From: Candidatus Eiseniibacteriota bacterium
Lineage (GTDB): Bacteria; Eisenbacteria; RBG-16-71-46; JABDJR01
Reading direction: 5' to 3'
DNA length: 64,000 nt
Assembly (NCBI GenBank): GCA_963762255.1
Contig: CAVXKA010000002.1
Span: 672,001-736,000, forward strand
In this document: one piece after another, positions 15,589 to 23,845 of the stretch
Layout of the letters: each line of letters starts with the position of its first letter
Position numbering within the stretch: the first letter of the stretch is position 1
Position numbers and translations under genes: made by a program
The notes under the pieces: model-generated
Seen by the model: only the letters and a program-made list of their open reading frames with translations
What the model was told of the DNA's origin: nothing
Databases searched by the model: none

Positions 15589-17018
15589 GAAGCGCACGCT
15601 CGGGGCCGGCGGCTGCGCTGGCCGGCCTCTTCGGACTGATGGCGGTGGCGGGGGCGGCACGGGCTGCCGCCCCTCTCGCCAGCACCGCAGACGTCCCTCC
15701 CGCCGGCGATCCGGTCGGACAGGCGGTCCAGGCGGTCTCCGCGGCGCGGATCGAAGCCGACATCCGCCGTCTGGCGGCGTTCGGCACCCGTCACACGCTC
15801 TCCGAGACCACGCCGGCTGAGCGCGGTATCGGCGCCGCGGCGCGTTGGGTGCAGGCGCAGTTCGACAGCATCTCCGCCGCCAACGGCGGACGTCTGCAGG
15901 TGGTGTGGGACGCGTGGGATCAAGAGCCCGAGGAACGCGTCCCCACTCGCGCGCGTCTCGCCAACGTGGTCGCGATACTCCCGGGGACGGCATCCGGCGC
16001 CGTGCCCGTGGGGGACGCCGGCACAGCCGTCCCTGCCGGTGGAGACGTCTGTTTTGTGGTGGGTGGCCACCTTGACTCCCGCGCCGCCGACATCATGGAT
16101 GCGGTCTCGGACGCACCCGGCGCCGACGACGACGGGAGCGGGATCGCGGTCGTGCTCGAATGCGCGCGGGTCATGGCCCGCTTGCAGTGGGACCATACGC
16201 TCGTCTTCATCGCGTTCACCGGCGAGGAGCAGAACCTTCTCGGCAGCACCCATTGGGCGCAGCTCGCCGCGGCGGATTCGCTACGACTCGGCGGCGCCGT
16301 CGCCGTCGACATGGCCGGTAATACGCGCGCCGCGGACGGAGCCCTGGTCGACGACTACGTGCGTGTATTCAGCGAGGGCGTCCCGGCGGTCGAGGACGAG
16401 GCGGCGGCGCGGCTGCGCGCGGCCACCGGGGGCGAGAACGATTCTCCCTCACGGCAGTGGGCACGCTACGTGCGCGAAGCCGCCGAGAAGTACGTCCCCG
16501 AGTTCGAAGCCCGGCTGGTCTTCCGCCGCGACCGATTCCTGCGGGGCGGCGACCACATTCCGTTCAACCGCGCCGGGTTCACGGCGGTGCGCCTGACCGA
16601 AGCCGTCGAGAACTACGATCACCAACATCAGAACCCGCGCACCGAGAACGGCGTCCGCTACGGCGACCTTCCCGAGTTCGTCGACTTCGCCTATGCCGCC
16701 CGCATCGCCGGCGTCGCCGTGGCCGCTCTCGGCCACGCCGCGTCGGCCCCCGAGGCGCCGCGCGGAGTCACGATCGACGTGAGCGGCCTCGCTGTCGACA
16801 CCACGCTGCGCTGGGAGCCGAGCCCCGAGGAGGATCTCGACGGCTACGAAGTTGTGTGGCGCGCCACCACCGAGCCGGTGTGGACTCACTTCCTCGACGT
16901 CGGCCCGGTGACCGAGGCCACGCTCCCCCTTTCCAAGGATGACACCCTGTTCGGCGTCAGGGTCCGTGACCGCGCCGGCCACCTGAGCCCGGCGGTCGTC
17001 CCGGTGCCGAAGCGATGA
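15585..17018 (+). CDS. M28 family metallopeptidase with C-terminal FN3-like domain
   Basis: Motifs FGTRHT, GGHLDS, GADDDGSG, GEEQ, GGDH and HQ. Signal peptide; TTG overlaps the pruA stop. Confidence 0.9.
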
Positions 17019-17695
17019 AGCTCACCGTCATCATCCCTGTGTTCAACGAGGAGCGGACGATCGAGCAGGTCGTGCGCGCGGTGGCGGCGGTCCCCATCGA
17101 CACGGACATCGTCGCTGTCGACGACGCTTCCGTCGACCGTACCCCGGAGATCCTGCGCGCGTTAGAGAGCGAGGGCCTGGTCCGCGTCTTTCGCCAGACT
17201 CGGAACCTTGGCAAGGGCGCCGCGGTACGCCGGGGCATCGACGAGGCCCGGGGGGAGATCTGCGTCATCCAGGACGCCGACCTCGAGTATCAGCCGAGCG
17301 ACTTCCCGGCACTCATCCGGCCCATCGTCGAGTACGGCGCCGACGCGGTCTACGGCAGCCGCTTTCTGGGACCGCACCGCGTCTTCCTTCACTGGCACTA
17401 CGCCGCCAACCGCTTCCTCACCGGGGCGGCCAACCTGCTCTTCGACACGATGCTTACCGACATGGAAACGGGGTACAAGGCGGTACGCACCGAGGTTCTG
17501 CGGGGAATGAACCTGCGGTCGAGCACCTTCGATATCGAGCCCGAGATCACGGCCAAGCTCTTCAAACGCAGGTGCAAGGTGTTCGAGATCCCGATTACGT
17601 ACAACGGCCGGACCTACGCCGAGGGGAAGAAGATCCGGGCCAAGGACGGCCTGCTGGCGGTGATCGCGCTCCTTCGCTTCCGTTTCGTCGACTGA
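17015..17695 (+). CDS. GT2 glycosyltransferase (polyprenol-phosphate sugar synthase/DPM1-like)
   Basis: Motifs IPVFNE, VDDAS, GKGAA, IQDADLEY, YGSRF and TDMETGYK. Confidence 0.92.
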   Translation: MKLTVIIPVFNEERTIEQVVRAVAAVPIDTDIVAVDDASVDRTPEILRALESEGLVRVFRQTRNLGKGAAVRRGIDEARGEICVIQDADLEYQPSDFPALIRPIVEYGADAVYGSRFLGPHRVFLHWHYAANRFLTGAANLLFDTMLTDMETGYKAVRTEVLRGMNLRSSTFDIEPEITAKLFKRRCKVFEIPITYNGRTYAEGKKIRAKDGLLAVIALLRFRFVD

Positions 17696-17761: not shown

Positions 17762-18325
17762 TTGAAGATCGCGTTCATCGGCACGCATGGGGTGGGAAAG
17801 ACGACCCTGTGTTTCGATCTCGCCGCCAATCTCAAGCGCCTCGACTTCACCGTGGACCTCGTGAAAGAGGTGGCGCGGGATTGTCCCCTGCCCATCAACC
17901 GCGACACCACCTACGACGCGCAATCGTGGATCTTTCACACCCAGATCGCGCGCGAGCTGGCCTCGGCGGGACGCCACGAGGTCGTCATCTGCGACCGCTC
18001 GGTGCTCGACAACTACGCGTATCTGGTCAACAAGATCGGGCGGCGCAAGGAAATGGACCCCCTCATCACCCACTGGCTCACCACGTACGGCGCGCTGGTC
18101 AAGGTGCCGATCTGGAAGGCCCCGAGTTTCGACGGCGTACGCGACGTGGGGCTCGAGTTCCAGCGCGAGATCGACCGCACGCTGGAAGCCCTCATCGCCG
18201 ATTTCGGCGTCTCCGTGCTGCGGCTGGAGCCGAGCGAGATGGAGATGTGGACCCAGCGTGTGCTCGACTACCTCGACCTCCCCACGCGGGCCGAACAAGT
18301 GCAGCTCTTCCCGGAGGATGCATGA
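17762..18325 (+). CDS. P-loop kinase/ATPase (NadR/AAA_28-like)
   Basis: Walker [14 protein letters not shown] and [11 protein letters not shown] start. Confidence 0.8.
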
Positions 18326-19470
18326 CCCGTCACGATTCCAAGCACCATTACCTTGCCGGGCCCCGCATCCAACCGCAAGCCATCCGCGGCGGCATGACGG
18401 TGGACACGCTCATCGACGAGACGTTCCTGGCCTACAACGCGGGGCGCATCCAGACCGCGGCGCGGCTCCTGGTCGAGAAGGGACTGCACGCGGACACGAC
18501 GATGGGGCTCTCGCTGGCCGGAGCCATGAGCCCGGCGGGGGTGACGCTTTCGACCATCATCCCGCTCGTGCAGGCGGGGTTCATCGACTGGATCGTCTCC
18601 ACGGGGGCGAATCTCTACCACGATGCGCATTTCGGGCTGGGGCTGGCGCTTCACCGAGGCAGCCACACCCTCGACGACCGTCAGCTCTTCGAGGCGGGGG
18701 TGATTCGCATCTACGACGTCCTCTTCGACTACGAGGTCCTGCTCAAGACCGACGCCTTCATCCGCGAGGTGATGAAGAACCCCGAGTTCAAACGCACGAT
18801 GGGCACCGCGGAGTTCCACCACTTGCTCGGCAAGCACCTCGCCGCGCGTGAGGAAGCGCTGGGGCTCAAGGACACGTGCCTCCTGACCGTCGCCTACCGC
18901 TGCGGCGTGCCGTGCTACGTCTCGTCGCCCGGGGATTCCTCGATCGGCATGAACGTGGCCGAGATGGCGATCCGCGGCGAGGGCCCGGTGATCGACGTGA
19001 GTCGCGACGTCAACGAGACGGCGGCCATCGTCTACGATGCCAAGAAGCACGGGAAGAGCGCGGTGCTGCTCCTGGGCGGCGGCTCACCCAAGAACTTCGT
19101 ACTGCAGACCGAGCCGCAGATCCAGGAAGTGCTGGGATTGCCGGAGAAGGGGCACGACTACTTCATTCAGGTGACGGACGCGCGGCCCGACACAGGCGGG
19201 CTTTCGGGGGCGACGCCCTCCGAGGCGGTCTCGTGGGGCAAGATCGATCCGTCCCAACTCCCCGACACGGTCGTCATCTACTCCGACACCACGATCGCGG
19301 CGCCGCTCCTGGCCGCCTACATGCTGAGTCGGCACGAGCCGCGCCCCTTGAAGCGGCTCTACGACCGCCGCGATGCGATCTACGGGCGATTGCGCGAGGA
19401 CTTCCTGTCAGCTCGGCGCGAGCCGGAGGACATTCGCGGCACACGCGACGAGGTGCGCCCGGGCGGTTAG
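18322..19470 (+). CDS. Deoxyhypusine synthase-like protein (possible homospermidine synthase)
   Basis: Motifs [21 protein letters not shown] and [19 protein letters not shown], with the catalytic Lys retained. Confidence 0.9.
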
Positions 19471-19503
19471 CCGCTCGGTCTGGACGACGCCGAGACGAGT
19501 CTT

Positions 19504-22161
19504 CTACTTCGCCTCGAAACGACCCTGGAAGAAACGCAGCTTGTCCGGCTCGTACACGAACGTGAGTCCCTTGAGACTCTCCCGCCGGGCGTAGACCCGC
19601 TGAATCCCCTCGGCGATCCCCCGCATGTGGTCGTTGGTGTAGACCCGGCGAGGAATCGTGAGGCGAACCAATTCCAGGGCGGGGCGGTAGTTTTGGCCCG
19701 TCTGCGGGTTCCGGCCCTTGGAGACGTTGCCGCGCTCCATGGCCCGCACCCCGGTCTCGACGTAGATCTCGGCCGCAAGTCGCTGAGCCGGGTACTCGTC
19801 CTGATCGATATGGGGCAGAAATCTCTTGGCATCGATGAAAATCGCATGCGTTCCCGCGGGGACGACGATCGGAACCCCGGCCTCTTGCAGGAGCTGCCCC
19901 AGATAGTGGGTTTGCTGCACGCGGGACCGGATGTACCGATCGTCCAGCATCTCCTCGATTCCGCGGTTGATGGCTGCGAGGTCCGCGGTGGCCAGCCCCC
20001 CGTCGGTGACGTTCCCCTCATAGATCCGCAGCAACTCCAACGCCTTGTCCGCCCATGCCTGATTGTCCCGGAAGGCGAGGAGGCCGCCGATGTTGATGAG
20101 GAAGTCCTTCTTCCCGCTCACCGTGCAGCCGTCTCCGTAGAGCATCATCTCCCGCACGATGTCTCGGATCTTCACCCCGCGGTAGCGAGGATCCCGATTC
20201 TGGATCATGTACGCATTCTCGACGAACCGGGTGGCATCGAAGAAGATCGGGATGCCGAGCGCGCTGCAGTACTCGTACACCTCCTTCATGTTGTCCATGC
20301 TGACCGGCTGGCCGCCGGCCATGTTCACCGAGTGCTCGAAGGAGATATAGGAGACCTTCTCCGCCCCGTGCTCGTCGACCACTGCGCGGAGCTTCTGCAG
20401 ATCGATGTTCCCCTTCCAGGGGAATTCGCTCTGGGTGTCATGGGCCTCGTCCACGATGATGTCGACGAAGACGCCCCCCGCCAGTTCCTGATGAAGCTTG
20501 GTCGTGGTGAAGTACATGTTTCCCGGCACCCATTGCCGATCCTTGATCATGACCTGGCTCAGGATGTGTTCGGCCGCCCGCCCCTGGTGGGTGGGAATGA
20601 TGAACTGGTACCCGAGAACATCCTGAAGCGTCGCGGTCAGGCGGTGGTACTCGTCGCTGGACGTGGCGCTCGCTCGCGCGCCGTCGTAGGCCGCCCACTG
20701 ATCGGTGCTCATGGCCGTGGTCCCGGAGTCGGTCAGGAGATCGATGGAGACGTCTCCGGAGCGAAGCAGGAACGTGTTGTACCCCGCCTCTCGAATCGCC
20801 CGCTCGCGCTGGTCCCGGGCGAGAACTCCGACCCTCTCCATGGTGTGGATCTGGTAGGGCAGGGTATCGAATTCGAAGGACCGGAGGTTCGGGAAGACCC
20901 AGTGGTAGTGCATCTGGTCCCGCCAGGCTCCACCCGCGATCTCCTGAAGACCCGCCACCTGGTCGCACTGCCCCTGCAAGGCAACGATCGCATCGGCCAC
21001 CTGATCGAGCTGCGCGTTGGTCATGGCCAACCGAGGAATCTGAACCGGCACCAGCCGGTCCTTGCCGACCAGACCGGTGGCCACCGCGCGAACTCCGGAG
21101 AGCAGATAGAGCGCGGCCGAGAACGTGTCCTGCTGGTGCTCGGTGATGTGCGGCAGGAATTCATCGGCCCGGATGTAGGCCCCGTCGCACCCCCGCTCCA
21201 GAGGGACGCCCGCATCCCGGAGCCTCTGTGTGAAGCGTTCCGTCTGGTGCATGACCCAGTGAACTTCACCCTCGTCGCACATCTCCTGGATCCCGCGGGC
21301 GAGAACTTCCATGGTCCGGCCGGCCATCCCCCCGTAGGTGTGCAGGCCCTCGTAGACCACGACCTCGTTCATGAACTTCTCGTGCACGTCGGGGTCGTCG
21401 GTCGTGAGAATGCCCCCGGTGTTGCACTTGGGATCCTGGGCTCCGTCCATCTGGAAGACATCGGTGGTCTTTACGATCTGCTTCACGATCTCGGCGACAG
21501 GCCTGTCGGCCTGGCCCGGCTCGTGGTGCTGGATGTACCAAGCGTTCTCGATCACCCGGGAACCGTCGCAGATGACGAGCTTCCCGTGCTTGGCCGCGGC
21601 TGCCTTCACCGCCCGCAGGTTGGCGAGGCTGAAGGGGTGCCGCCCGTCGGCGAACGCCTGAAGCCCGACGAAGGCCACGTTCCCCTGCTTGAGAACTCCC
21701 TCCAGTCGTCCCAGGTCGACGTTCCCGGTGAACACCGGCTCCTCGGTGTCCCGCACGTCCGGGTACTGAACGTTCAGCGGTCTGAACACGTCCAGCCGCG
21801 AGCGCGCGTTGCTTGGCACGGCGGACCCGGCCGGCACCAGGGTCGACACCACCAGCTTCACGCAGCCCAGCACGTTGTGAGTGGGACAGACGTACCCGTG
21901 CCCGAGAACGTCCTTCACCGCCCTCTCGAGCGATTCGAAATTGCGGGAGCCCGCGTAAGCCTCGTCGCCGATCAACTGACCGGAGAGCTGCTCCTGACTG
22001 AACGCGCTGGTTCCCAGCGAGCACATGTCGAAGTTGACCTGGGTCGGGGTCAGATGCCAGACGTTGAATCGGGCCCGGGAGAGATACTTCTTGCGCTCTT
22101 CCAGCGTGGGGAAGGAGAGAAGCCGGACCGTCTTGATCTTGTGGGGCTCGTGCGTGACCAT
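19504..22161 (-). CDS. Tandem-duplicated tyrosine phenol-lyase/tryptophanase-family protein (885 aa)
   Basis: Two consecutive beta-eliminating-lyase units in one frame. The C-terminal unit has DLLTDSGT, THQGRAAE, SGKKD and RLTIPRRVYT. The N-terminal unit has GDEAYAGS and YEGLHTYGG. ATG at 22161 follows an AAGGA RBS. Confidence 0.92.
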   Translation of the reverse strand: MVTHEPHKIKTVRLLSFPTLEERKKYLSRARFNVWHLTPTQVNFDMCSLGTSAFSQEQLSGQLIGDEAYAGSRNFESLERAVKDVLGHGYVCPTHNVLGCVKLVVSTLVPAGSAVPSNARSRLDVFRPLNVQYPDVRDTEEPVFTGNVDLGRLEGVLKQGNVAFVGLQAFADGRHPFSLANLRAVKAAAAKHGKLVICDGSRVIENAWYIQHHEPGQADRPVAEIVKQIVKTTDVFQMDGAQDPKCNTGGILTTDDPDVHEKFMNEVVVYEGLHTYGGMAGRTMEVLARGIQEMCDEGEVHWVMHQTERFTQRLRDAGVPLERGCDGAYIRADEFLPHITEHQQDTFSAALYLLSGVRAVATGLVGKDRLVPVQIPRLAMTNAQLDQVADAIVALQGQCDQVAGLQEIAGGAWRDQMHYHWVFPNLRSFEFDTLPYQIHTMERVGVLARDQRERAIREAGYNTFLLRSGDVSIDLLTDSGTTAMSTDQWAAYDGARASATSSDEYHRLTATLQDVLGYQFIIPTHQGRAAEHILSQVMIKDRQWVPGNMYFTTTKLHQELAGGVFVDIIVDEAHDTQSEFPWKGNIDLQKLRAVVDEHGAEKVSYISFEHSVNMAGGQPVSMDNMKEVYEYCSALGIPIFFDATRFVENAYMIQNRDPRYRGVKIRDIVREMMLYGDGCTVSGKKDFLINIGGLLAFRDNQAWADKALELLRIYEGNVTDGGLATADLAAINRGIEEMLDDRYIRSRVQQTHYLGQLLQEAGVPIVVPAGTHAIFIDAKRFLPHIDQDEYPAQRLAAEIYVETGVRAMERGNVSKGRNPQTGQNYRPALELVRLTIPRRVYTNDHMRGIAEGIQRVYARRESLKGLTFVYEPDKLRFFQGRFEAK

Positions 22162-22328
22162 GCTCGTTCCTTTGGAGAGATCCGATTCCGAGCGCGACCC
22201 GTCGATTAGAGCGGAAGGGGGCTCCGCCGGGCAAGAGGGTAAGAGATCATTCCCAAAATGTATCGCCGCGGACTTCCGGTATTTCGGGTTACTTGCCCAA
22301 CCGGCGAGCCCGGACGCGATCGACATCG

Positions 22329-22361
22329 CGAGGGGGGGTCGGATTCCCCGATCCCCCCTCG
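22329..22361. terminator. Strong hairpin between the T9SS-type gene and the lyase gene
   Basis: CGAGGGGGGGTCGG…CCGATCCCCCCTCG forms a 14-bp stem with one G-T pair. No clear U-tract. Confidence 0.45.
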
Positions 22362-22387
22362 AACGGACAGTTCCCCGATAGGCTCGA

Positions 22388-23845
22388 TCAGCGCATGAGT
22401 AGGAGCTTCCGGGTGAGCTTCTCCCCCGCCACCTCCAGGCGGTAGAAATAGATCCCCGACGGCATGGAGTCCGGCGACGTCGCATCGAGCGTCACCCGCT
22501 GCAAGCCGGGTTCCATCGGCGCGTTCACGATGACCCTCACCAACCGGCCCTGCACGTCGAAGAGGCTCAGGCGGACGGGCACTGTAGCTGCCCCGTCCTT
22601 CGCCGCGGGAACCTGGAACGAAATCTCCGTGCTCCGGGTGAACGGGTTCGGCGAGTTCTGGAGAAGTCTCGGAGTCGGCGAGAGGTCGCCGTCATCCAGA
22701 CCGCCCTGGCCGGTCGGGAAGATCTTGAATCCCTCGGGGGCGCGCGTCTGCAGTGTCGCCATCACGATGCCCCTGCTGGGGATGTTCCAAGTGAGGTTGG
22801 CCCCCGAGAAATAGGGCTCGTTCACCACCGGATTGATCGAGAGCAGCGGGTCGATGGGCACGCCGAGGGGAATCACATTCCCGTAGTCACTTATCGCCCA
22901 TGCGTCCCCGGTGAAGACGTCGATGACGGCGAAATCCAGCAGGACCCCCGCAGGCACACAGGTCGAGTACACGCCGGGAGCGGGATCTAGACCATCCGAG
23001 AAATCCCATGCGCCCTCGTCGGTCATGAAGCCAAGCCTCAGCACTTCGGGCGCGGCCATCAGCTCGACGGTAATTGTCACCCAGGTGCAATCTGGCTTGA
23101 ACTCCTCCGGCCAGCCGGTGCCGCCAAAGACCGGCATGACATTGAAGTTCTGCTTCTCATCCTTGGCCCTGTAGGGCTTGTACGAATGGCCGTTCGTGAT
23201 GTTCCTGATCTTCTGCTGCTTGTCGGCCTCGGTGAACGACCGATTGTCCTGAGCTCTCTGGCTTGCAGGCACGAGGGTTCCGTCACAGTTGACGTCCCCG
23301 GGATTCCTCGAATGGCCGGCTCCGCGAAGGATGTGATCGAGTTCGTGCGCGGCATTCTCCCCGATCGCATTGGAGCGGGCGGTCGAGTTGCTGAACCACG
23401 TCGAGACGTTCGGATCCGCGGTGAACTCTCCACCGTAGATGTTGGCCGTAGTGCTCCAGGCCTCCCCCCACACCAATCCATCCCCGGTCACGGTATCCCG
23501 ATCCGGAGTGATATTGAGCTGGTGATAGGACCCCGTCGTCGGCTTGACCGTCGTGAAGTTGATGAGCGTGGAGGCGAAGCCGTACTTGCTCTTCAGCGTC
23601 TCCATGACCATGCCTCGCTCGGTCGCGTTCAGCCAGTTGGACTGCATGCTCACATAGACGGTGATGACCGCACCGGTGCCCGGCTGGAGCATCATCCGGT
23701 CGGAGCGGGAGAGAGGAACAGGCGGCGAGAACCCGGGGGCGGGGCCGGACCACGCGGGGTCACGTCGACCCAGGTCGGCCGTCGCCGGAGCCGCGAGAAG
23801 GACGAGGGCGAGAGGGATCAGCAGGGCGATCGCGAACCAACGCAT
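22388..23845 (-). CDS. Secreted putative zinc metalloprotease with T9SS/FlgD-Ig-like C-terminal domain
   Basis: Signal peptide; AAHELDHILRGAGH (HExxH); C-terminus QNSPNPF…FDVQGRLV…SGIYFYRL…TRKLLLMR. Confidence 0.8.
   Translation of the reverse strand: MRWFAIALLIPLALVLLAAPATADLGRRDPAWSGPAPGFSPPVPLSRSDRMMLQPGTGAVITVYVSMQSNWLNATERGMVMETLKSKYGFASTLINFTTVKPTTGSYHQLNITPDRDTVTGDGLVWGEAWSTTANIYGGEFTADPNVSTWFSNSTARSNAIGENAAHELDHILRGAGHSRNPGDVNCDGTLVPASQRAQDNRSFTEADKQQKIRNITNGHSYKPYRAKDEKQNFNVMPVFGGTGWPEEFKPDCTWVTITVELMAAPEVLRLGFMTDEGAWDFSDGLDPAPGVYSTCVPAGVLLDFAVIDVFTGDAWAISDYGNVIPLGVPIDPLLSINPVVNEPYFSGANLTWNIPSRGIVMATLQTRAPEGFKIFPTGQGGLDDGDLSPTPRLLQNSPNPFTRSTEISFQVPAAKDGAATVPVRLSLFDVQGRLVRVIVNAPMEPGLQRVTLDATSPDSMPSGIYFYRLEVAGEKLTRKLLLMR

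Follow-up and report, generated by a model that had tools for sequence, protein, structure and literature searches.

The window analysed here, a stretch of 64,000 nucleotides from a Candidatus Eiseniibacteriota bacterium (contig CAVXKA010000002.1, positions 672,001 to 736,000 of the forward strand), carries on its minus strand a gene, P0001, whose product consists of two beta-eliminating lyase modules (PF01212) joined in tandem (Table 1). An earlier note, made from the sequence of this DNA, had described the product as a fused tyrosine phenol-lyase (TPL) pseudo-dimer with reciprocally degenerate halves. This description is borne out, as a single open reading frame (ORF) encodes two full-length TPL-like modules, and every motif quoted in that note is present at its place. 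The PF01212 hidden Markov model of Pfam scores 323.9 bits against a cut-off of 27 and matches in two stretches, which correspond to the two halves. Each half aligns over its full length to solved TPLs: residues 432-883 of the C-half match residues 4-454 of 1c7g (E 8.6e-163), and residues 3-406 of the N-half match residues 4-438 of 9j3u (E 3.1e-60). The N-half and the C-half share 27% identity with each other (E 2e-44).

The ORF starts with the ATG at 22161 and ends at 19504, stop codon counted in, and AAAGGAACGAGC precedes this ATG. A longer frame reaching up to 22485 would share sequence with the upstream gene, whose end is at 22388, and the first ATG of the longer frame is located inside that gene. 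The resulting length of 885 aa is shared by 60 of 121 close homologues. The two halves are connected without a separate linker, the tail of the N-half continuing straight into the N-terminal arm of the C-half, and within this tail W413, R414, D415, Y419, W421, and F431 are conserved in the close set defined below. The TPL residue numbers D214, S254, K257, M288, and Y291 were counted off a Protein Data Bank (PDB) alignment.

Table 1. Position of the fused lyase gene, its modules, and its active-site motifs in the window (PLP, pyridoxal 5'-phosphate; pLDDT, predicted local distance difference test).
Feature	Residues or motif	Positions	Strand	Remarks
Whole coding sequence P0001	885 aa + stop	19504..22161	(-)	Two PF01212 (beta-eliminating lyase) modules fused in tandem
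N-half	1-431	20869..22161	(-)	TPL-fold module without cofactor site; putative donor of trans-acting loops; pLDDT mostly 85-95
C-half	432-885	19507..20868	(-)	Putative catalytic TPL-type module with cofactor and substrate site; match to 1c7g; TIGR02618 633.8 bits
Junction	N-half tail 405-431 to C-half N-terminal arm 432-443	20833..20949	(-)	pLDDT 42-59 over 431-450
N-half Tyr71 loop	G65-S72 GDEAYAGS	21946..21969	(-)	E67 = TPL Glu69; Y69 = TPL Tyr71, general acid
N-half former lysine motif	D239-K245 DGAQDPK	21427..21447	(-)	Replaces TPL S254-G-K256-K257-D; Q242 at the place of the PLP lysine
N-half Tyr291 loop	Y270-G278 YEGLHTYGG	21328..21354	(-)	L273 at the place of TPL Met288; Y276 = TPL Tyr291
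C-half Tyr71-loop counterpart	G494-S501 GARASATS	20659..20682	(-)	Degenerate; without equivalent of Glu69 or Tyr71
C-half	M549-T554 MYFTTT	20500..20517	(-)	F551 = TPL Phe123, T552 = TPL Thr124; each position 121/121
C-half lysine motif	S682-D686 SGKKD	20104..20118	(-)	K685 = PLP-binding Lys257; 121/121 close homologues, 228/228 fused proteins
C-half Tyr291-loop counterpart	Y714-G722 YEGNVTDGG	19996..20022	(-)	D720 at the place of Tyr291, N717 at the place of Met288
C-half	M808-G811 MERG	19729..19740	(-)	M808 = TPL Met379, R810 = TPL Arg381; 121/121
C-half	R833-R839 RLTIPRR	19645..19665	(-)	R833 = TPL Arg404; 121/121 close homologues, 228/228 fused proteins
C-half	L875-F878 LRFF	19528..19539	(-)	F877, F878 = TPL Phe448, Phe449; 121/121

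Conservation was analysed in a close set of 121 sequences, for which 120 homologues are listed out of 1737 matches at E ≤ 0.001 (7999 scored candidates, proteins of 486-1549 aa). The listed homologues measure 866-925 aa, are 74-95% identical to the query at a query coverage of 98-100%, and are annotated as tryptophanase or tyrosine phenol-lyase. They originate from metagenome-assembled genomes (MAGs) of Eisenbacteria, Gemmatimonadota, Acidobacteriota, and Myxococcales, with uncultured Gemmatimonadota and Eisenbacteria forming the majority. Mean identity to the query within this set is 75% for the N-half and 80% for the C-half.

The C-half contains the complete set of TPL residues for binding of cofactor and substrate, i.e., the PLP-binding set (Lys257 together with Lys256, Asp214, Arg217, Asn185, Ser254, and Gln98-Gly99-Arg100) and the substrate and specificity set (Thr124, Arg381, Met379, Arg404, Phe448, and Phe449), as well as Phe123 and Thr216. 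Every one of these residues is present in 121/121 sequences of the close set, among them K684, K685, R528, N613, D642, and R645 in the numbering of the fused protein, and they include motifs such as THQGRA at 524 and FDATR at 641. Arg404 of TPL we take to be the carboxylate anchor. What the lysine-bearing half lacks are the two tyrosines, Tyr71 and Tyr291, that canonical TPL subunits carry along with the lysine and lend to the site of their partner: counts over the 121 close homologues reveal no tyrosine at positions 495-501 of the C-half, and Asp720 occupies the place of Tyr291 in all 121.

The N-half presents the opposite picture. Both tyrosines are found in this half only (Y69 and Y276, 121/121), embedded in segments in which G65, D66, E67, Y69, A70, and G71 are each invariant in the close set and also identical in all seven deep clusters described below, and in which each residue from E271 through G278 is likewise present in 121/121. 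Glu69 of TPL, the counterpart of E67, presumably participates in the monovalent-cation site. The cofactor site of the N-half has been dismantled: Asn-Val-Leu stands for Gln98-Gly99-Arg100 (THNVLG at 94), Asp239 for Ser254, Ala241-Gln242 for Lys256-Lys257, and Pro372 for Arg404 (VPVQIP at 371), and the places 123/124 and 381 are unrelated to TPL. Gln242, at the place of the PLP lysine, is found in 121/121 and Asp239 in 120/121 sequences, and the only members of the PLP set that are left are Asp199, Arg202, and a serine for Thr216 (CDGSR at 198). An LRSF motif of the N-half, for which equivalence to the Phe448 region had been claimed, is not conserved, Arg427 occurring in only 4/121 homologues. 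Judged by its residues, the N-half has retained what a subunit lends to its neighbour and the C-half what a subunit owns. The catalytic module lacks Tyr71 and Tyr291 and the other one lacks Lys257, Arg100, and Arg404, which leaves room for no more than one functional site per pair.

A lending of tyrosines between subunits, which the earlier note had stated for both TPL and tryptophanase, is documented in the literature for two tryptophanases. Tyr74 and Tyr307 of E. coli tryptophanase reach across to the adjacent subunit, where their hydroxyls bind the phosphate group of PLP, and the exchange Y74F lowers the activity from 45.7 to 0.2 U/mg (PMC2770544). In tryptophan indole-lyase (TIL) from Proteus, Tyr-72*, which acts as proton donor, is contributed by the other chain of the catalytic dimer, and the roles in indole binding are assigned to Asp-133 and His-458 (PMC11301627). 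For TPL itself, Tyr71 is described as general acid, Arg381 as general base, and Thr124 as crucial, the cofactor lysine is located at the interface with the neighbouring subunit, and Phe448 and Phe449 form a lid over the substrate ring (PMC10170061).

The reciprocal pattern is present in 121/121 close homologues and extends far beyond them. When 50%-identity representatives were searched with the N-half alone and without a profile, 11 full two-module representatives were obtained, seven of which possess a C-half with TPL signature; these seven TPL-type clusters are mutually at or below about 50% identity, and all seven show the pattern. In their C-halves, the residues of the cis site are canonical in 126/126 cells and the trans residues in 5/28, and in their N-halves, the cis site is canonical in 24/126 cells and the trans residues in 21/28, all seven misses consisting in the exchange of Met288 for leucine. 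Mean pairwise identity among the seven clusters is 0.34 for the N-half and 0.57 for the C-half. Fifty-three N-half positions are identical in 7/7 clusters, and 25 of them are located in the tyrosine segments 65-74 and 267-293. This amounts to 25/37 positions in the tyrosine segments versus 28/367 elsewhere (Fisher p 1.6e-16, a value to be taken as no more than indicative, as the sequences are related).

The same comparison bears on the fate of the abandoned pocket. The earlier note had suggested that the dead second pocket may be regulatory or may shift specificity, and one might imagine that, besides lending its tyrosines, the N-half binds a ligand in what used to be its cofactor pocket and thereby adjusts, in an allosteric manner, the C-half site or the specificity of that site. 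Within the close set, 10/16 former-pocket positions are at least 98% conserved as compared to 142/431 positions of the whole N-half (Fisher p 0.015), and the replacement motifs DGAQDPK and FADGQHP are almost invariant. However, a buried core is expected to be conserved in a family of at least 74% identity, scans of the domain library detected no ligand-binding or regulatory domain signature, and over the seven deep clusters identity is limited to 1/16 pocket positions, with the tyrosine loops retained in full. At this depth, the suggestion is unsupported, and we regard an allosteric pocket as rather improbable; a subfamily-specific role in the close family, where the 10/16 positions are conserved, could still apply.

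The lower identity of the N-half among the deep clusters (0.34 versus 0.57) indicates that it is the faster-evolving half, as would be expected of a decaying, functionless duplicate. Ratios of nonsynonymous to synonymous substitution rates (omega, Nei-Gojobori) speak against such a decay. They were obtained from 32 coding sequences, and for the 10 closest of 496 pairs (dS 0.16-0.49) omega ranges from 0.057 to 0.108 for the N-half and from 0.045 to 0.122 for the C-half; pairs beyond the closest were not used, their values being seemingly saturated or biased by high G+C content. Both halves are under strong purifying selection, and the low omega of the N-half in the closest pairs therefore marks it as a selected module and not as a remnant.

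Nor does the fusion look like an artefact of assembly or annotation. There are at least 120 clusters of 866-925 aa, and one intact ORF runs across both halves in 31/38 related loci from species-level genomes; among the remaining loci, three are truncated at the end of a contig and four are disrupted by frame changes. These 38 loci belong mostly to Gemmatimonadota, with three from Planctomycetota and one each from Thermoanaerobaculia, Myxococcales, and a genome labelled Deltaproteobacteria. A 3121-nt contig from a soil run of another study covers 19886-22161 and thus passes through the junction, with 95 differences and no gap. Taken together, a decaying duplicate or an artefact is so improbable that it can practically be set aside. 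In the four broken loci (L013, L030, L037, and L041), the fused gene is split into at least two overlapping ORFs, two of the frame changes being situated near the junction. The breaks resemble frame errors rather than natural splits, and they could represent either sequencing errors or natural breaks.

Among the representatives and loci examined, none encodes the two TPL modules as separate genes, and no stand-alone N-type protein came up when the 50%-identity representatives were searched with the N-half. The best candidate for the latter, P0122 of about 455 aa, proved to be a fragment that runs into the start of a C-half. In the phylum of the window genome, the N-half is detected at E ≤ 1e-80 in 31/206 species genomes (window genome counted) and in 10/83 genera. 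Since it is absent from the seven other genomes of the same family (0/7), its distribution is patchy. With regard to expression, a scan of 19300-22500 for promoters and terminators found none, and sequencing run X16 yielded short pieces only, no run exceeding 0.33 of the sampled words.

A single-chain AlphaFold2 model, calculated from a 66-row alignment, reaches a mean pLDDT of 83.3 and a predicted template modelling score (pTM) of 0.80, with regions of low confidence at residues 1-10, 68-71, 439-448, 479-481, 811-815, and 873-877. The predicted C-half superimposes on 1c7g with a Z-score of 53.1 and a root-mean-square deviation of 1.5 Å over 439 residues at 54% identity (VIA-align), and Foldseek gives the model a TM-score of 0.94 to 1c7g, normalised by target, consistent with the TPL fold. 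When the halves were predicted as two chains together with PLP, a score of 0.92 was obtained, as compared to 0.00 for the best of three controls; the mark applied to this kind of prediction is reached by 116/157 solved complexes and by 2/215 mismatched pairs. Contact agreement between the runs was at least 95% and the pLDDT of the partner at least 93. The confidently predicted interface includes residues 35-40, 47-51, 66-73, 95-99, 247-248, 268-273, 278-283, 413, and 415 of the N-half and residues 464-469, 476-482, 496-503, 525-529, 690-691, 712-719, 722-727, and 874-878 of the C-half. These lists take in the tyrosine loops of the N-half and the cofactor elements of the C-half that correspond to Thr49, Ser51-Thr53, Gln98, and Arg100 in TPL numbering. 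Residues 690/691 of the C-half pair with 280-283 of the N-half, and residue 724 of the C-half with 247/248 of the N-half, as pseudo-symmetry mates, and residue 525 of the C-half touches residue 95 of the N-half. Such pseudo-symmetric contact pairs point to an interface of the catalytic-dimer kind.

With respect to the reaction, the residues agree with the view of the earlier note that the protein is a TPL rather than a tryptophanase, as T552, R810, and F877/F878 are found in 121/121 sequences at places where enzymes of the tryptophanase type have Asp, Ile/Leu/Val, and His. TIGR02618, the equivalog model for TPL (EC 4.1.99.2), is the top-scoring model for the C-half, whereas the tryptophanase model TIGR02617 (EC 4.1.99.1) gives 627.9 bits, below its cut-off of 825.8. 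In the second of two careful trees, the TPL-type C-halves group with stand-alone proteins of TPL signature (support values 94/95). On this residue basis, the fused enzyme is probably a true TPL. The same genome also encodes a stand-alone paralogue of 455 aa and of tryptophanase type (G000 contig 3, 724169-725512, minus strand; L002, 1486-2853, minus strand), in which places 124, 381, and 448 are occupied by Asp, Ile, and His and both tyrosines and the lysine are present. By overall sequence, the best PDB matches of this paralogue are TPLs, and its gene is flanked by genes for an aldehyde dehydrogenase and an aconitase-family protein.

Combining these results, we think it likely that the fused protein is a single-chain pseudo-heterodimer of TPL with one composite active site. 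Each half has kept only those active-site parts that the other one has lost, and the chain should therefore build a single working site. The one-site proposal had already been put forward in the earlier note, and all computed evidence, i.e., the reciprocal pattern, the documented trans-acting tyrosines, and the predicted interface, speaks in its favour. The two modules would pack like the subunits of a TPL or tryptophanase catalytic dimer, and one of the two sites at their interface would work. To this site, the C-half would provide Lys685 for the Schiff base with PLP, Gln526, Gly527, Arg528, Asn613, Asp642, Arg645, and Ser682 for binding of PLP, Arg833 for the carboxylate, and Thr552, Arg810, Met808, Phe877, and Phe878 for the phenol ring, and the N-half would lend Tyr69 as general acid together with Tyr276 and Glu67. 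The mirror site, made of the N-half pocket and the loops of the C-half, is devoid of the lysine, of the arginine that binds the phosphate, and of both tyrosines and thus should bind no PLP. The expected activity, as read from the residues, would be the cleavage of L-tyrosine with release of phenol, pyruvate, and ammonia, and each 885-aa chain would carry one PLP. The sequence pattern, its conservation, the purifying selection on both halves, and a predicted interface like that of a catalytic dimer result directly from the analysis, and it is the intra-chain pairing, the number of PLP per chain, and the nature of the substrate that we infer.

Several points weigh against this proposal. The success of the two-chain prediction may reflect a memory of solved TPL or tryptophanase dimers; the run used an alignment of our own and included the ligand, unlike the calibration, and its output is confined to lists of interface residues and a few contact pairs. 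We equate E. coli Tyr307 with TPL Tyr291 on the basis of the TYGG motif that the two enzymes have in common. Contigs from RNA libraries (X17) are about 91-93% identical, belong to a relative, and leave the junction unbridged. No single module reaches the TIGR02618 cut-off of 720.7, the C-half scoring 633.8 and the N-half 250.7 bits, and the 879.1 bits of the whole protein exceed it only through the summing of two modules. As HMMER sums the scores of the modules, automatic annotation names the fusion a plain TPL. Furthermore, leucine at the trans place of Met288 in the N-half means that specificity could differ from that of the TPLs studied so far. Finally, the pLDDT at residues 431-450 of the junction is low (42-59), N- and C-halves may pair within or between chains, and in many VIA-align rows N-half residues of about 61-64 fall at the N-terminal arm of the TPL chain itself (residues 10-14), followed by the C-half.

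An alternative is an arrangement in which two chains contribute to the same composite site, one through its N-half and the other through its C-half, so that a dimer with swapped domains would imitate the tetramer of TPL. In canonical enzymes, the N-terminal arm, with residues 12-17 and 58-60, is joined in a beta-sheet to a subunit of the opposite catalytic dimer (PMC2770544). In the fused protein, there is no free linker at the junction, model confidence is low there, and the arm of the C-half is tethered to the tail of the N-half, so that another geometry might be favoured. As the halves were run as separate chains, the two-chain prediction does not distinguish between pairing within and between chains and fits either of them. 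On the other hand, the pTM of the single-chain model suggests a confident mutual position of the halves, and residues 413 and 415 of the N-half tail form part of the predicted interface with the C-half. An exchange between chains thus seems improbable to us, and pairing within the chain is preferred.

The TIGR02618 shortfall of the C-half and the exchange of Met288 for leucine in 7/7 TPL-type clusters would also suit a beta-eliminating lyase with the same composite site whose physiological substrate is another beta-substituted or aromatic amino acid, and the gene neighbourhood offers no hint to a pathway. In contrast, Thr124, Arg381, Met379, Phe36, Phe123, Phe448, and Phe449 are kept in 121/121 C-halves, the TPL-type C-halves stand beside canonical TPL-signature single proteins in the tree mentioned above, and TIGR02618 still is the best-scoring model. 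A different physiological substrate is therefore considered unlikely, and tyrosine remains the preferred one.

The division of labour was also examined in a pooled sample of 228 two-module proteins (out of 231 fetched at 800-1100 aa), which is biased towards relatives of two queries and in which marker counts were adjusted by eye for P0304 (a missed tyrosine) and P0075 (a false positive in the C-half). Lys257, Arg100, Arg404, and Asp214 are present in 228/228 C-halves, and 215/228 of these carry the TPL signature, with Tyr71 in 11/228 and Tyr291 in only 2/228. The N-halves have a tyrosine at 71 in 226/228 and at 291 in 226/228 cases, and Lys257 in 15/228. Judged by the markers Tyr71, Tyr291, and Lys257, both sites are complete in 0/228 fused proteins; the C-site is complete in 226/228, and the remaining two show the mirror-image arrangement. 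These two, P0280 (944 aa) and P0281 (927 aa), which bear the label of a Chroococcales cyanobacterium MAG, possess an N-half with the cis set and the lysine and with Phe and Cys at the two tyrosine places, and a C-half with both tyrosines in which Asn185 is changed to Thr and Arg217 to His. As their polarity is reversed, the live site would be that of the N-half.

Another group with cyanobacterial labels (P0134, P0272-P0279, and P0138, labelled Pantanalinema and Stenomitos) has N-halves with Lys256/Lys257, Arg100, Arg404, and a near-full cofactor set, and C-halves in which Tyr71 is kept, Tyr291 is absent, and no TPL signature is found (Val at 381, Ala-Thr at 448/449). The P0134 group may represent an intermediate with two cofactor sites, and the lysine-keeping and mirror-image fusions look like stages or variants of the same collapse to one site. 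As regards the origin of the N-halves, a quick tree placed them outside the TPL clade, but an approximately unbiased (AU) test did not reject a single clade of N-halves, C-halves, and TPL single proteins (p 0.971), and the tree constrained for this test was better than the quick tree by 89.8 log-likelihood units. The backbone of a first careful tree was without resolution, and in the second one all 18 N-halves are located on one side of a branch (97/86), a grouping that could be due to one origin or to long-branch attraction. The number of fusion events may lie between one and three.

The neighbours of the gene in the window encode an M28 peptidase, a family 2 glycosyltransferase (GT2), an AAA_28 ATPase, a deoxyhypusine-synthase-like protein, an unnamed secreted protein, and a PMT_2/TPR protein. 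They provide no pathway link, and no neighbour family occurs in more than 12 of the 38 related loci. The gene of the deoxyhypusine synthase family (PF01916, E 2e-69) at 18322-19470 on the plus strand is convergent with the fused lyase gene and is preceded by the genes for the AAA_28 ATPase (17762-18325) and the GT2 glycosyltransferase (17015-17695). The upstream gene (22388-23845), on the same minus strand as the fused gene, codes for a protein of 485 aa with an N-terminal hydrophobic segment and without Pfam match at E ≤ 1e-4.

Among PLP enzymes, TPL and tryptophanase are textbook cases, and TPL serves as industrial catalyst for the production of L-3,4-dihydroxyphenylalanine (L-DOPA). The C-half shares the fold and the PLP- and substrate-binding residues with the TPLs of Citrobacter freundii and Erwinia herbicola (1c7g, 2tpl, 2ez1), and in both cases the active site is situated where two modules meet. 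In contrast to canonical TPL, in which four identical subunits of 456 aa form a tetramer and all four sites are equivalent, the protein from the window combines two diverged modules in one chain. The tryptophanases of E. coli and Proteus vulgaris (2c44, 1ax4) belong to the same PF01212 family and employ the same trans-tyrosine arrangement. Full-text literature searches, whose coverage leaves out most subscription journals, turned up no account of a tandem TPL or tryptophanase occurring in nature, nor biochemical data on any fused member.

A parallel in organisation is serine palmitoyltransferase (SPT), in which LCB1 lacks the PLP lysine and serves the single site of its partner LCB2. At the level of sequence, the same organisation is encountered here, one module being without lysine but with residues to lend and its partner having the lysine. 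SPT is also a fold-type I PLP enzyme, and SPT entries reached Z-scores of about 29 in the fold search, with no relation to TPL other than the fold; as a member of the alpha-oxoamine synthase family, SPT differs in its chemistry and is membrane-associated. In coccolithoviruses, the SPT subunits are encoded as LCB2-LCB1 by one fused gene in most EhV genomes and are separate in EhV-18 and EhV-145 (PMC5371807). A second parallel is provided by the trypanosomatid S-adenosylmethionine decarboxylase (AdoMetDC) prozyme and by deoxyhypusine synthase paralogue pairs, where a dead paralogue and an impaired active paralogue together form a working site at their interface. Such pseudoenzyme-activated pairs are separate polypeptides of unrelated folds from eukaryotic parasites, whereas the fused lyase is a covalent tandem in bacteria. 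The principle of one composite site is already known from SPT and pseudoenzyme-activated enzymes.

One may speculate that fusion of a fold-type I PLP dimer forces the collapse to one site in either polarity, and that the rebuilt, invariant D172/D239/Q242 pocket together with the equally invariant W413-R414-D415 tail, which contacts the C-half in the prediction, constitutes an allosteric or gating device, an idea that we hold to be doubtful. If true, an N-half acting in allostery or gating would make the protein a regulated TPL without counterpart among the enzymes studied so far.

The names tryptophanase and tyrosine phenol-lyase given to these proteins in databases conceal their two-module architecture. 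In homo-oligomers, the division of labour by lent tyrosines can be tested only by mutating all sites together, and the fused protein offers a natural system in which each half site is accessible to single-mutation tests; it may also serve as a one-site-per-chain scaffold for engineering. The fused proteins would further provide an evolutionary series that leads from fusions with a lysine-keeping N-half to those with a fully degenerate N-half and to the mirror polarity of the two cyanobacterial proteins. In many uncultured bacteria from soil and sediment, cis and trans half sites have been separated on covalently linked modules and are kept in this state under strong selection.

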